Shown: one piece after another, positions 20,527 through 39,448 of the stretch
How positions within the stretch are numbered: the stretch's first letter is position 1
How the letters are laid out: each line of letters begins with the position of its first letter
Virus record (IMG/VR): IMGVR_UViG_3300027708_000051
Coordinates: 13,961-77,960 of that record
Reading direction: 5' to 3' (one strand)
Length of the DNA stretch: 64,000 bases
Source: a virus
Notes under the pieces: generated by a model
Seen by the model: only the letters and a program-made list of their open reading frames with translations
Told to the model about the DNA's origin: nothing
The model's database searches: none
Made by a program: the position numbers and the translations under genes

Positions 20527-23500
20527 ATGAGTTGTTTTTTATCATATAATGCTAGTATAACGGGAGATTGTACTAATCTTAACTTAGGGTCATTTACCAT
20601 TACAATTAATGGTAATGCTCCCGACTATACAATTCAATGGTTATCACCGACCACAGGTACAACTGCGTTAGGTGCTGGTGTTACTGCGTATACTCAAACT
20701 AATTTATCTGCCGGTACATACTCATTTAATATTATTGATAGTTGTATTTCGGGTAATACAGTACAACCTGTTAATATTTACATATCTAGTGGAACTTGTG
20801 TTTCAATTACAAATGTTACTGATACTGTATGTGATGCGAGTAACGGTTCTTTAATTGTGGAAACTAGTAATTTTTATGGTAACGCGGTATTTTCATTATA
20901 CAGTGAAACAACAGGTTTAATTTCAACATTTTATCCAACAAACAATTCATATTTATTTAATAATTTATCGTCTGGCATTTATTACGTGATTGCCAATGAT
21001 GGAGGTGGATGTACAGGTAAATCTGAAAGCGTAATTGTTAAAAATTCATCAAATTTAAATTTTGGTTTATATGTTGTTGATGATGCGGGATGTGCATCTA
21101 ATTCAGGTAAAATATTTATAACAGGTTTAACAGGCACACCACCATATACTTATTTATGGTCTAATGGGGGAACTAATGATAGTATTACAGGTTTAACAGA
21201 AGGTGTTTATACAGTAACGGTAACTGACAGTAGTTATTGTTCTATTAGTAATACTGCGGTAATAAATAAAATATCACCAGTTGGGTTAGGTGCGATTTAT
21301 TTAACACAACCAACTTGTTTTACGGCGGATGGTGAGGTGGAAATTATTATAACAGGTGGTACCGCACCATTTTATTATTTAGGGTCTAATGGAGTTACAA
21401 ATGTTACATTTGATAGAACAGTTGTTTTTACGGGATTAGGTCCGGGAGGGTTTACCATTCAAGTTACTGACGCGGGATTATGTACTTTTACTGCAAGAAC
21501 AAAGTTATTAACACCAAAAGGTATGTCTGCAGTATCAGTTGACATTACTAATTCAACTTGTAATGATTTTTCAGGTGTTGTTGGTCCTATTGTTGTGTTT
21601 GGTGGAACAGCACCTTATACGTTTACTTTGACAGATTCGTCAGGAAAACAAAATTCAAACACCGTTTATCAACCAAATTATATATTTAATAATTTATCTT
21701 CAGGTGATTATACTTTAGATATTACTGATAATGGTGGTTGTACATTCACAAGTGCTTATACGATTAATAACGTAGTTACCTTTGAATTATTTGCATCAAC
21801 TATTGGTACAACTTGTGATGGTGATAACGGTTCAGTTACTTTAGAAATAACAAGTGGTGGGACGCCTCCTTATAGATACGAAATAAATGGTCAATCTATA
21901 AATAATGTATCATTAACTTCATATACATTTAACAATTTAGTTAGTGGTAATTATGTTGGAAGTGTAATAGATTCATCATTATGTAAACAAAGTCAAACAT
22001 TTACCATTAACCAATCAAATACTATTGATTTTCATTTATTAGGTGAAAACTCAGTAAATGACGATGGAATTATTACTGCTTATATAACAAACGGAACACC
22101 TCCATTCACATTATATTTTAATGGTGATACTTCGGGAACTACAGTTATGACAATACCTGATTTACCTGCGGGTAATTATTCGGTTAGAATTGTTGATAGT
22201 TCAGGATGTTCAAAAACAAAAAAAATACCAATTAAGGGTGAAAACCAATTTAACTCTGTAGGGTATTATAATGTTTGTCAGGGGTCATTTGACTCTCCAA
22301 TAGCTGTCTTATCAAACATTAGACAATTTTTTTATGAAGGTTATAATGAATTGATAACACAAGGGTTTATATCATCAGGTTATACTAATTGTATGTTAAC
22401 CGGAGCAACATTTTCGGCACAAACGACTGTTGGTGATTGTGTTAATTCAGTTATTTTTCATACGGGGACTTCTATAACAGATTATCCAACTGATGAATTA
22501 TGGTTTTCGGCTATTACAACCTTAATTGAGTCTTGTCCTCAAATTGGGGATGGTAACATTGATATTGATTCGTTAAATAATACAATCACAGTCACGACAA
22601 ATTGTGAACCTGAATCTTTACATAATTCAAATGTTTTAGTGGAACTAAGGATTGATTATGAAATTGAGTGTGTTTGTCCACCTGTAACCCCAAGTCCAAC
22701 ACCAACACCAACTTATACACCAACACAAACTCATACACCAACACCAACTTATACACCAACACTAACAATGACACCTGGTGCTTCACCACCAGTGACTCCA
22801 ACACACACCCCTACACCAAGTATTACACGAACTCATACACCAACACCAACAATAACACAAACTAAAACTCCGACACTTACACCAAGTATAACGCCTACTC
22901 ATACGCCAACACCGTCACCTAAAGACAAATATTATGTATACTTAATGTGTGGAGAACACCCAAGTAACACAACGGTAGTAATTCAAACAGTTCCTGCGAT
23001 ACTAAATAATGTGATTAATGATGTTATACTTGATTTAACCCATAAGATTTGTTGGCAATTAGTTGATATTGGTACTAATCTACAACAATTACAATCTCAA
23101 TGGAATGGTACTACTTACAATAATTATTTTACAGGTGGAGTAACACTATTCCCATATATTCCAACTAAAACACCTTGTGATGATTGTAAAAAAGCACTTG
23201 AAGCTTTACCGGTCCCAATTAAAAGTGATTGCCCAACTAGTTTAAGAAATTGGAGTGATTGTAAAGGTGCTGATGTTACTGGTGAAATATATATTATAAC
23301 ACCAAATGGTGTTGCAAGTCTTGTTTATTCATTTGGACCTAATTTTGATGTTAACTTATATCTTGGTAGTTTACCAACAAACAGTGGTGATATTATTAAA
23401 ATAATATTAACACCACCATTAGACGGGGGGTCAATTGTTACATTAAATGTTACAGGTAATGCACCGTATTCGCAAACAAGTAATGAATCAATAGTATATG

Positions 23501-24030
23501 AGTTTAAAACCGTATGTAACCAAAAAGGTGATGGTAGTAGTATAGAAATTTTCTCAACTTGTAAAGGTTCTATACCTTCAATAACTTTGTACAGTACTTC
23601 GTATAGTGAGGCAGGAATTCTTCCATCAACTTATTATTCAACATCTTGTTTACAAAGTAATACTTCACCAGCAATGACTTGGATTTTAAATAATTTTAAT
23701 GGATTATCTGTTTTTAGTTTTGAAATACTTTGTGAAGATTTAAATGCGTCGGGTAGTAGTCCAAATGGTTATTTTGTTCATTGGTGGGTTAAAGATATAG
23801 ACCCAACTCAATTAGATATTACTGCTGCGGGTAGTTGGGTTAGTGCGACAGTTCTACCAACCGATTATGGTTCAGGTGATGACGCTAACGGATGGAATGG
23901 ACCTTGTCCTTTAACTGCACCTTCTAATCACAACTATAGAATACAAATAACTGCTAATTTAGTTATTGGTGGTCCTTTAGTTAGTAATTACTCAACATTT
24001 GTTGGACCTTGTATATCACCATTCTGTTAA
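20527..24030 (+). CDS. Tail fibre/adhesin: SprB-like repeats, Pro/Thr hinge, C-terminal YbhB/YbcL (PEBP)-like domain
   Basis: Repeated GGTPPY.Y.W..G.Y.V.V.D..GC units; TPTP tract; CEDLNA...FVHWW...GWNGPCP...HNYR. Confidence 0.7.
22681..22920 (+). repeat. Pro/Thr hinge repeat tract
   Basis: (ACACCA)n-based tract encoding [18 protein letters not shown]. Confidence 0.9.
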
Positions 24031-24035
24031 TAAAT

Positions 24036-36919: not shown

Positions 36920-36925
36920 AATTTA

Positions 36926-39448
36926 TTATGATATAGTTATATTAACATTTCTAGGTGGTGATTGTAATGTCGAATATGCCGATATGTTAGTGTATTTTGG
37001 TGTACTAGTACCTCTTAATTGTAGTATACCACTAGACCAAGTTGAATTTGAATAACTTGTTAGTAATTTATCAATATTTGTACTATTAAATCCTGAAGAA
37101 CTACTAATTATAATTGTACTTAAATTTGTAAAAATTCTAGAACTATTTGAGAATGTTGTAATGGTATTATTACCACGAATTATTAAACGATTAATTGCTA
37201 AATGAACTAATGATAAATCTCCGGAAATAGTGTTCTGTCCTGATATAGTAATGTTTTTAGCGTTAGATGGTAAGTTTTGAATATTTCCTGAAATAGTGTT
37301 ATGACCATCAATAAATATTTGATAATACGCGTAAGAATTACCAAGAGTTCCAATATCACCGGTTACTGTATTGCTACCTTCTAAAGAAAAGAATGCCCCG
37401 GATTTTAAGTTTATTGAACTAATATTTCCTGAAATAACGTTATTACCTACAATTGACACTGTAATTAAGGTTGAATAGTTAAATGTGTTTATATTACCAT
37501 ATAATGTGTTTGAACCTGAAACCTCAATTCGGATTAAATTTGGGGGTAACGTTGAAATATCTCCAGTTACCGTATTATTACCGTATAATTGTATTTGAGT
37601 TGTACTATTAGGTAATCCACCTAAATCACCTGAAATAGTGTTAAGACCGCCAATGTATATTCTATATAAAGATGGTGTTGACAATAAAGCTATGTTTCCA
37701 CTAATGATGTTTTGACCTTCAATCACAAGGTCTACAAGAGATGATGATGGGATGTTTTGAATATTACCACTTAATGTATTATTACCACCTATAGCAAATG
37801 TTGTTAATGTTATTGGTAAATTGGCGACATTTCCTAGTATCGTATTAGACATATTTAATGACGAGGATAAGTAATTAATTGTGAATGATTCAATAGTTGA
37901 TGGTAAATATTGAATATCTCCGGATAAATTACCATAAGTTACATAAAGAGTTATTAATGATGACGGTAATAAATTAAGATTTCCTGATAAAAATACTATA
38001 TTCGCTACGTTAAAAACTGTTAGCCCATCTAATAGTGATAATTGAGAAGTTCCAACCTCTAAATATCTAGTACTTGTGTCAGTTATTAATGGTAATGTAC
38101 CGATGTTTGCTTGAAAAGTAGTAATTGAAGTTAAGTCAGATGATTGAATTAATATATTTCCAGTGTATGGTGATGAATATGTGTGAGTGATTGCTATAGT
38201 TGTATTTGGAGTATATACCATAGTATTACCATCTCCCCAAACAACCCTGAATGGTAAAAGTGGGGATATCACAAGACTAATAGAAACATTATTTAAACTT
38301 CTAGCTGTCATAGTAAATGTTTCGTTCATTGCTGCCGGTTGTGTTATAGTTGGTGTAAGTGTTGGAGTTGGTGTGTGTGTTGTTGTTGGAGTGTGTGTTG
38401 GTGTTATACTTGGTGTTACAGTGTGTGTTGGTGTTTGAGTTAGTGTTGGTGTATAAGTTGGTGTTTGAGTTAATGTTGGTGTATTAGTATGTGTAACACT
38501 CGGTGTTGGAGTGTGTGTTGGAGTGTGAGTTTGGGTTATACTTGGTGTTGGTGTATGTGTAGGGCTTTGTGTTGGTGTTGGTGTTAAAGCTATTTGACAA
38601 TAAACACAATCACCAGAATAAGAATAACCATAAGAACCTGATAAAATATTAATATCATTTATGTTTCCGTGATTATAATCTATTCCTACATAAAAAATAC
38701 ATTTATTTGATGCGATTCCTGATATAGTTACAGATGCACCATACACACTAAATAATTCAAACTGATATCCTGTTGGTTTTCCTGTGACATTATTACAATA
38801 GTAAAAATCACCATAATAACAATCTTGGAATTTTAAAGACCCTGGGCAAATTATTTGACCGGTAATTGCAGAATAGTTGGCAAACCCATATAATGGACAA
38901 TTTCTTGTTATTAAATCTGAATAAAATGGTAATATTGCTTTTTTATTCTTTGTGTTATATTTTGTTGGTGTTACTGTTGGGGTTGGTGTTGGGGTTGGTG
39001 TGTAAGTGTATCCGCTAGCGTCAATACCAATAATTGAACAAAAATTTGTTGAAGATGGTGTTATTGTTGGTGTTGGAGTTACACTTGCACTTGGAGTTGG
39101 TGTTGGGGTTGGTATATATTCACAATCAAATAATGCTGTAAAATCTAACACATCACAATTTTGTGTTGGGGTTGGAGTAGGTGTAGGACACATTCCACTA
39201 AAAACGTAAACACTTGATAAGTCAGGACAAGAACTTGTGCACGGATATTTTCCCGTTAAATAACAAGTTCCTCCTAATGTATCAGATAAACACCAATAAC
39301 TTGTTGCACCTGTTGAATAATATATAGTCCAACCACTAGTTTGACCTGTCCAATAGGATTTACCATTATAGGTTCCTCCTGTTATGTAGTTATCATCGGC
39401 ACCTACTAATCCGGTGTTATTTATACAATATGTAGAACTACAAGGCAT
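36926..39448 (-). CDS. Virion appendage protein: Cys-rich N-terminus, Pro/Thr hinges, PKD-like motif, C-terminal LRRs
   Basis: VVWGDG; repeated L..L.I.G.N.ISGDI..LP; PT tracts about 38340-38585 and 38965-39190. Confidence 0.65.

Follow-up and report, generated by a model that had tools for sequence, protein, structure and literature searches.

The stretch of DNA considered here, referred to as the window, comprises 64,000 nucleotides (nt) and represents bases 13961-77960 of the 77,960-bp IMG/VR virus record IMGVR_UViG_3300027708_000051, which is itself estimated to be 27% complete. It harbors three genes, g1 (20527-24030, + strand), g574 (35195-36919, - strand), and gLRR (36926-39448, - strand), whose products follow a common plan in which an N-terminal body leads into a proline/threonine-rich (Pro/Thr or PT) hinge and then into a tip. 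The position of these genes after the baseplate wedge genes, together with the types of domain that they encode, points to virion fibers or receptor-binding proteins. An original prediction for this locus, made from the sequence alone, held that exact repeats within the hinges of these oppositely oriented genes form a candidate shufflon-like system, in which inversion would swap tips in frame without gene loss.

The g1 body (amino acids (aa) 1-715; 20527..22671, + strand) is made up of SprB-repeat/Ig-like sequence (Pfam SprB, E 1.8e-16) and forms the constant left flank of the system. It is kept at 44-80% identity in 60 related loci, where it is always found directly after the gene pair g302-g1026. 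The g1 hinge (aa 716-800, 85 aa; 22672..22926), the putative left crossover tract, is found at the same position of the gene in most closer relatives. The 367-aa tip that follows (aa 801-1167; 22927..24030) combines a Cys-rich module with a PEBP domain (aa 1040-1143, ~23644-23955; Pfam PBP, E 2.1e-8). On the - strand, g574 encodes an N-terminal body (35987..36919) whose first ~74 aa represent a small domain, a hinge (aa 312-369; 35813..35986), and a tip with no Pfam match (aa 370-574; 35195..35812), a homologue of which is found in the related locus L058. The adjacent gLRR encodes a body (aa 1-287), termed LRRN, which together with the 80-aa gene g80 forms the constant right flank (38588..39692, - strand) that is never inverted in relatives, as well as a hinge (aa 288-372; 38333..38587) and a leucine-rich-repeat-like (LRR-like) tip (aa 373-840; 36926..38332). 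The predicted plan of body, hinge, and differing tip is thus present in all three genes and Pfam recovers the PEBP domain of g1, whereas it calls no LRR in the gLRR tip, for which many homologues nevertheless exist.

The hinges of g1 and its two opposed partners are related to each other as imperfect inverted repeats, with 72-78% identity over 90-200 nt, and exact matches are embedded within them. Positions 22740-22766 (+) in the g1 hinge form a 27-nt exact inverted repeat with 38439-38465 (-), arm b, in the gLRR hinge, and positions 22798-22823 (+) form a 26-nt exact inverted repeat with 35913-35938 (-), arm b, in the g574 hinge. Both had been predicted as 26-nt repeats, and the first (22741-22766/38439-38464) extends to 27 nt on inspection. 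The g574 and gLRR hinges additionally share a 26-nt exact direct repeat (35879-35904 and 38534-38559), at which recombination would delete or duplicate ~2.6 kb. Each inverted pair lies in the same codon phase, as had been proposed, so a crossover at either would be in frame. The repeats enclose both tips and leave both N-terminal bodies outside, so such a crossover would swap the tips in frame.

Low-complexity tracts are prone to chance matches, a caveat that accompanied the prediction together with a codon-shuffled control as the appropriate check. A dinucleotide shuffle of the window represents an uninformative null, and the main test therefore kept the hinge peptides and permuted their synonymous codons; a second null shuffled codon order over 1000 trials. 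Under synonymous-codon permutation the longest match has a mean of ~18 nt, against the observed 26, 27, and 26 nt for the three hinge pairs (P(>=observed) of 0.035, 0.022, and 0.016, respectively), and matches of at least 26 nt in both g1 pairs together arise at a frequency of about 0.001. None of the 1000 trials with shuffled codon order attained the observed lengths. Long identities are thus not a frequent product of chance. Codon usage is also more uniform in the hinges than elsewhere (ACA 0.65 vs 0.51, CCA 0.75 vs 0.50). The caveat was therefore justified in part: shared peptide motifs and codon bias contribute to the repeat identities, yet these identities lie above what both of them give.

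The exact repeats might still be a passive by-product of shared descent, tandem slippage, and codon bias, with the inversions seen in relatives having arisen by other means and with hinges marking their ends only because breakpoints elsewhere would destroy genes. All three hinge pairs, the direct pair included, reach 26-27 nt, which would make such lengths typical of these tracts, and each match taken singly is just modestly unlikely given the peptide (P 0.02-0.05). Across six relatives, the g1 and LRRN hinges share exact matches of at most 14-17 nt, a length that comparisons between genomes also give, and inverted relatives now have no longer identity than this. Set against these points are the joint match probability, at about 0.001 or lower, and the observation that the PT hinges are the only or main significant inverted repeats of the region in most of the relatives examined. 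The shared motifs are, moreover, lineage-specific. The peptide motif HTPTPSIT is found in all three hinges of the window genome and PTYTPTLT in two of them, and a scan of the hinges in g1-derived loci and in extended contigs (L007-L066, G001-G009) recovered neither, indicating that the three hinges of the window have exchanged sequence within their own lineage. When the alignment overlaps of a sister pair described below are added to this evidence, the passive by-product explanation appears to be quite improbable.

A further motif, T-P-G-x-S-P, interrupts the center of the g1 PT hinge (22771-22793) and, in relatives, that of the LRRN-gene hinge too. Its variable residue co-varies within the genomes G001, G004, G005, and G006 (the pairs being A/A, L/L, L/M, and T/A), which suggests that the two hinges evolve in concert, and the hinges also display some within-genome similarity (P about 0.02-0.04). 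The motif was considered as a recombinase site and rejected, as it is a peptide motif without a conserved dyad in the DNA and is absent from two of the three window hinges.

The arrangement of the locus in relatives was followed in 140 related loci, 60 from a search with g1 and 80 from a search with the RuvC-like gene that lies within the segment. In all of them the orientation of the left genes (g302, g1026, and the g1 body) and of the right genes (the LRRN-type body, g80, and the primase) is fixed. The core of the intervening segment, consisting of g739, g805, and the RuvC-like gene, has the orientation of the window (layout A) in ~86 loci. It is inverted in 17 of the loci recovered with g1 and in 20-24 of those recovered with RuvC, a total of ~37 in which a few contigs are counted twice. 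The inverted loci are of two kinds. In layout B1 the 574N-type gene lies within the flipped part, as a crossover between g1 and the LRRN gene would yield, whereas in layout B2 it remains outside, as a crossover between g1 and the 574N gene would yield. The end-point partners of these two layouts are the same two that the predicted repeats connect to g1. The expectation that both pairs of repeats would have their own products is thus borne out for B1, which fits a g1 x gLRR exchange, and for B2 in layout alone, where neither a hinge breakpoint nor a reciprocal tip exchange is traceable.

One inversion can be traced in detail. The loci L011 (genome G001, layout B1) and L058 (genome G006, layout A) are sisters on both the flanking-gene and core-gene trees, with DNA that is about 88% identical. 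The two genomes run in parallel as far as the g1 hinge (87% identity), then in opposite directions for ~10 kb (83-89%), and from the LRRN hinge onward they are colinear once more (88%). At its two ends the inverted alignment shares 174 and 92 nt with the colinear ones, and these overlaps fall exactly in the two PT hinges, as a homology-mediated exchange predicts. Divergence is equal inside and outside the segment, which argues for an inversion in situ rather than an imported cassette. In G001 the Fib_succ_major tip is joined to the SprB body and the PEBP-type tip, a homologue of the g1 tip, to the LRRN body; in G006 the two pairings are exchanged. The peptide junctions fall within the PT tracts. 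The difference between G001 and G006 is a reciprocal, gene-preserving tip swap, and the product that had been foreseen, an inversion exchanging tips in frame without loss of a gene, therefore exists in nature. In G001 the 574N-type gene is shortened to 77 aa, just ahead of the point at which the hinge starts in G006, representing a deletion end point at a hinge.

Tip exchange is also apparent more broadly across the family. The fiber modules were compared by module-by-module BLAST; single-linkage clustering of segments merged them into one cluster through domain chaining. Identical types of N-terminus with different tips, which were to be looked for among relatives, are indeed found: the tips borne by the g1 body include PEBP-type, LRR, and Fib_succ_major tips as well as others. 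Conversely, the gLRR-type tip is found on three bodies, namely LRRN (in the window and L101), a g739N-type body, and the g1 body (L031, L033, L055, and L141). The g739N-type combination, in which a PT hinge precedes the tip, is found in L118 and in numerous database proteins (52-63% identity). Protein-database clusters that contain the PEBP-type tip nearly all join it to the SprB body, and a single cluster joins it to the LRRN body. Searches for near-identical copies of the LRR or PEBP tip on any other body found none. P0005, encoded on a 249-kb contig, is the nearest relative of gLRR; the two proteins share their architecture, their hinges are identical, and their bodies are 99% identical. 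The P0005 tip is only 87-89% identical to that of gLRR (36926-38332), with a shifted register across aa ~410-806, and the sequence comparison suggests rapid repeat rearrangement within the LRR array.

A minimum number of orientation changes can be read from the trees. At least three orientation changes are needed on the flanking-gene trees and at least four on the core-gene tree, rising to at least six when three states are distinguished. Loci of like orientation group strongly together on these trees, with 0 of 500 shuffles giving as low a number of changes. In addition, the 11 groups of identical core sequences, which encompass 37 contigs mostly from different samples, agree in orientation in every group. 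This concordance makes balanced fast switching unlikely, and is compatible with switching that is either strongly biased or rare. Viral contigs scanned for an exact g1-specific hinge junction, and metagenome contigs scanned for each of the exact repeats, gave no hit; these collections exclude the window's own record and very near ones, so the scans had no power. Taken together, these sequence comparisons support tip swapping by hinge inversion as an evolutionary process.

These observations bear directly on the idea of a programmed and frequent tip shuffler, driven by an unrecognized recombinase or by recombination tuned to the hinges, in which both pairings would be present in every lysate as a form of bet-hedging on host range, comparable to the Mu G segment, p15B Min, or a shufflon. 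The layout is that of an invertible tail-fiber segment, in which in-frame repeats separate the variable parts within from the constant parts on either side, and both predicted products exist among relatives. The more uniform codon usage of the hinges, their within-genome similarity with the co-varying T-P-G-x-S-P motif, and the fixed placement within the segment of an unusually conserved RuvC-like gene would all be in keeping with such a device. The clustering of orientation on the trees, the concordance of the identical-core groups, the lack of conservation of the exact repeats between relatives, and the presence of the PEBP-type tip on the LRRN body in just a single database cluster all speak against it.

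So, too, does the search for a dedicated recombinase. Neither serine (PF00239), tyrosine (PF00589), nor IS110-type (PF01548) recombinases gave a match in the 78-kb record, the complete 308-kb genome of G005, the 91%-complete G008, G009, or G001, whereas control genomes did give matches. The original prediction had noted that no site-specific recombinase was visible, and this is now extended to its relatives. An IS110/Piv-type recombinase was rejected on the same search, and a diversity-generating retroelement was likewise rejected, as the reverse transcriptase family PF00078 matched nothing in any of the five records searched, the complete relative among them. Of the features that define a site-specific invertible segment or shufflon, the in-frame fusion of a constant N-terminal part to alternative C-terminal parts is present, and a recombinase and conserved short sites were not found. 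The label of a shufflon-like system is consequently not upheld: no known recombinase family was detected, the repeats are unconserved in relatives, and orientation is stable within clades. A recombinase of unknown type may be present, and we regard a programmed and frequent shuffler as unlikely.

The explanation that best accommodates the locus as a whole is a rare homologous recombination from hinge to hinge that inverts the segment and re-pairs bodies with tips. The hinge tracts, which are related low-complexity DNA in opposite orientation, + in g1 and - in g574 and gLRR, would serve as in-frame crossover points for general recombination mediated by UvsX-like, SbcCD-like, and RuvC-like enzymes. 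An exchange at a pair of opposed hinges would invert 10-16 kb and join each body to the other tip, leaving both genes complete. Such inversions would be rare, fixed a handful of times in the family, and followed by selection, rather than forming part of a fast recombinase-driven switch. The 26-27-nt identities belong to the same explanation, as traces of recent exchange among the three hinges of the window and as the most likely future crossover points. We consider this combined reading likely.

Homologous, or nearly homologous, recombination is favored as the mechanism because the homology overlaps at both junctions, the hinges are the only or main significant inverted repeats in most of the relatives examined, homogenization is lineage-specific, and genes for the relevant enzymes are present. 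The SbcD-like gene (42677-43465, +; phrog_100, E 1.7e-21) and the SbcC-like gene (47305-49674, +; phrog_77, E 4.1e-41) lie outside the invertible segment, and a UvsX-like recombinase gene (phrog_97, E 1.3e-13, for L094:1396-2400) is found in the same record just upstream of the window. The gene for a RuvC-like Holliday-junction resolvase (24070..24669, -) is located inside the segment, where a RuvC gene had been predicted, on the strength of a weak match to phrog_159 (E 6.9e-5); a search of PDB sequences with the protein gave no match. These four gene products may well participate in the inversion.

Several considerations weigh against rare hinge-to-hinge recombination. The crossover has never been observed in the window genome's own population, and only one inferred inversion event has clearly reciprocal tips, since in the older A/B pairs that were compared for reciprocity (G003 vs L063, and L158 vs L152) the tips are too diverged or have been replaced. 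The hinge repeats are short and imperfect, with 27 nt exact inside tracts of about 130-200 nt at 72-78% identity, and constitute a poor substrate for RecA-type recombination; the exact g1 x LRRN matches of relatives, as described above, do not rise above the between-genome level. Selection for intact genes, as opposed to any mechanistic preference, could account in part for the location of the breakpoints in hinges. No rearrangement in the 140 related loci ends in the PT linker of g805, which indicates that selection filters the outcomes. Finally, the putative role of the proteins as fibers or receptor-binding proteins is based on gene position after the baseplate wedge and on domain types.

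A variant without any recombinase, a "homology shufflon," can also be envisaged, in which recombination-dependent replication would continuously flip a small fraction of genomes such that each burst contains some re-paired virions. We hold this to be conceivable, if doubtful. Were it true, selection would maintain the uniform codons and the homogenization of the hinges, thereby keeping standing host-range variation available.

The remainder of the segment consists of a conserved core and a variable cargo. The core (24673..29337, -), comprising g805 and g739, occurs in relatives in either orientation. Within g805 (24673-27090), the PT linker at aa 185-234 is conserved and shows weak inverted-repeat similarity to the g1 hinge (45 nt, 73%). 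In relatives g739 (27118-29337) is represented by two separate genes, of ~220 and ~430 aa, that flank a gene of ~740 aa, and the form found in the window is apparently a fusion or deletion. The RuvC-like gene always accompanies g805 inside the invertible segment, and it is very highly conserved: its product is 80-99% identical in relatives whose neighboring genes are at about 80% or lower, and 93-99% identical in relatives whose neighboring genes are only about 50-88% identical. The cargo genes (29597..35183, -), encoding proteins of 642, 82, 122, and 1015 aa, are mostly absent or replaced in relatives. The gene for the 1015-aa protein (32136-35183) contains several internal families of direct repeats, of ~50-195 nt with 60-89% identity, and is absent from most relatives.

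The small domain at the N-terminus of g574 (36698-36919) recurs as the stand-alone gene g80 (39450-39692). This ~75-aa domain has stand-alone versions in genes of 75-80 aa, and is found in G001 (17376-17609) and G003 (23819-24046). The g80 and g574 N-terminal versions are about 34% identical to one another in L013. The domain may act as a docking module that occurs with or without a payload. Between g80 and the primase gene lies an HNH endonuclease gene (39927-40622), which is found at the same place in G001 and is absent there in G003, G004, and G005. It looks like a mobile, homing-type insertion, and a second, diverged HNH copy is located upstream of g302 in G001 and G003. A second LRR-containing protein of 464 aa, with weak matches to Pfam LRR_14 and LRR_13, is encoded at 61193-62587, distant from the fiber cluster.

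The record has a G+C content of ~31%, and the window encodes a ribonucleotide reductase, a primase, SbcD-like and SbcC-like nucleases, and a RuvC-like resolvase. Two baseplate wedge proteins of T4 type, gp25-like (3962-4465) and gp6-like (4470-6308), precede the fiber genes, which come after this baseplate module. The gp6-like and gp25-like wedges, together with the ribonucleotide reductase, primase, SbcCD-like, and UvsX-like genes, fit a T4-like (Straboviridae-like) myovirus. The SprB and Fib_succ_major domains suggest that the host is probably a member of the Bacteroidota. Relatives range in size up to 272-322 kb, and one of 308,574 bp with terminal repeats is rated complete. Megablast and tblastn searches of GenBank phages found no similar cultured phage. 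On this gene content and the size of its relatives, the window is best regarded as part of an uncultured T4-like jumbo phage of ~300 kb. A scan for T4-type late promoters (TATAAATA) gave a result at chance level, with 22 found against 18.7 expected.

Invertible tail-fiber segments operated by serine invertases are well known from Mu (G/Gin), P1 (C/Cin), e14 (P/Pin), and p15B (Min), as outlined in bioRxiv 10.64898/2026.02.14.705889. The system in the window resembles these in that a constant N-terminal part outside the segment is joined in frame to an alternative C-terminal part inside it, through coding inverted repeats. It differs in that no invertase was detected, in that the repeats are degenerate, low-complexity, and unconserved, and in that orientation is evolutionarily stable rather than mixed. 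Here two complete genes exchange tips reciprocally, so that nothing is switched off, unlike in segments of the Mu G type. Shufflons of the R64 type employ the tyrosine recombinase Rci acting at sfx sites. As in the R64 shufflon, the several repeats of the window could in principle yield several C-terminal combinations, but no tyrosine recombinase, conserved short site, or silent cassette was found.

Another parallel is provided by the Anabaena cyanophages A-1(L), N-1, and Elbi, in which a ~30-kb region bounded by inverted repeats of 400-700 nt is invertible, with both isomers in one lysate and an orientation that does not follow phylogeny (bioRxiv 10.64898/2026.02.14.705889). Both systems have a large segment, bounded by inverted repeats, that occurs in both orientations among relatives; the phages described here have short repeats in the form of coding hinges, an orientation that tracks phylogeny, and an inversion that alters protein architecture. 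In T-even phages, conserved motifs are the places at which recombination exchanges modules of distal tail-fiber and adhesin genes (Tetart et al. 1998, as cited in PMC3157838), the glycine-rich motifs of gp38 being such module-exchange recombination motifs (PMC3157838), and "recombination hotspots" flank the receptor-binding domains of tailspikes (PMC10408124). With these systems the window shares a conserved anchor, an exchangeable tip, and short border or linker sequences that act as crossovers for general recombination in lytic phages. The features of module exchange are all represented: a conserved anchor with varied tips, breakpoints in shared border sequence, and recombination genes. The difference is that the partners are oppositely oriented genes of the same genome, with a Pro/Thr linker as the crossover tract, so the outcome is a 10-16 kb inversion with a reciprocal swap. 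The window system thus belongs with recombination-driven module exchange in fiber genes (PMC3157838, PMC10408124).

Tip exchange is usually pictured either as horizontal replacement between co-infecting phages or as a switch driven by an invertase. The hinges described here would add a third route, in which crossover takes place between the flexible Pro/Thr linkers of opposed genes in the same genome; one inversion then gives each of two bodies the tip of the other, and both genes stay whole. They offer a concrete and testable case of low-complexity linkers that double as recombination joints. For annotators and assemblers there is also a warning, that large inversions between close relatives can be real despite the short and imperfect nature of the repeats at their ends. 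For the jumbo phages known from metagenomes, hinge inversion would explain the mosaic architectures of their fibers.

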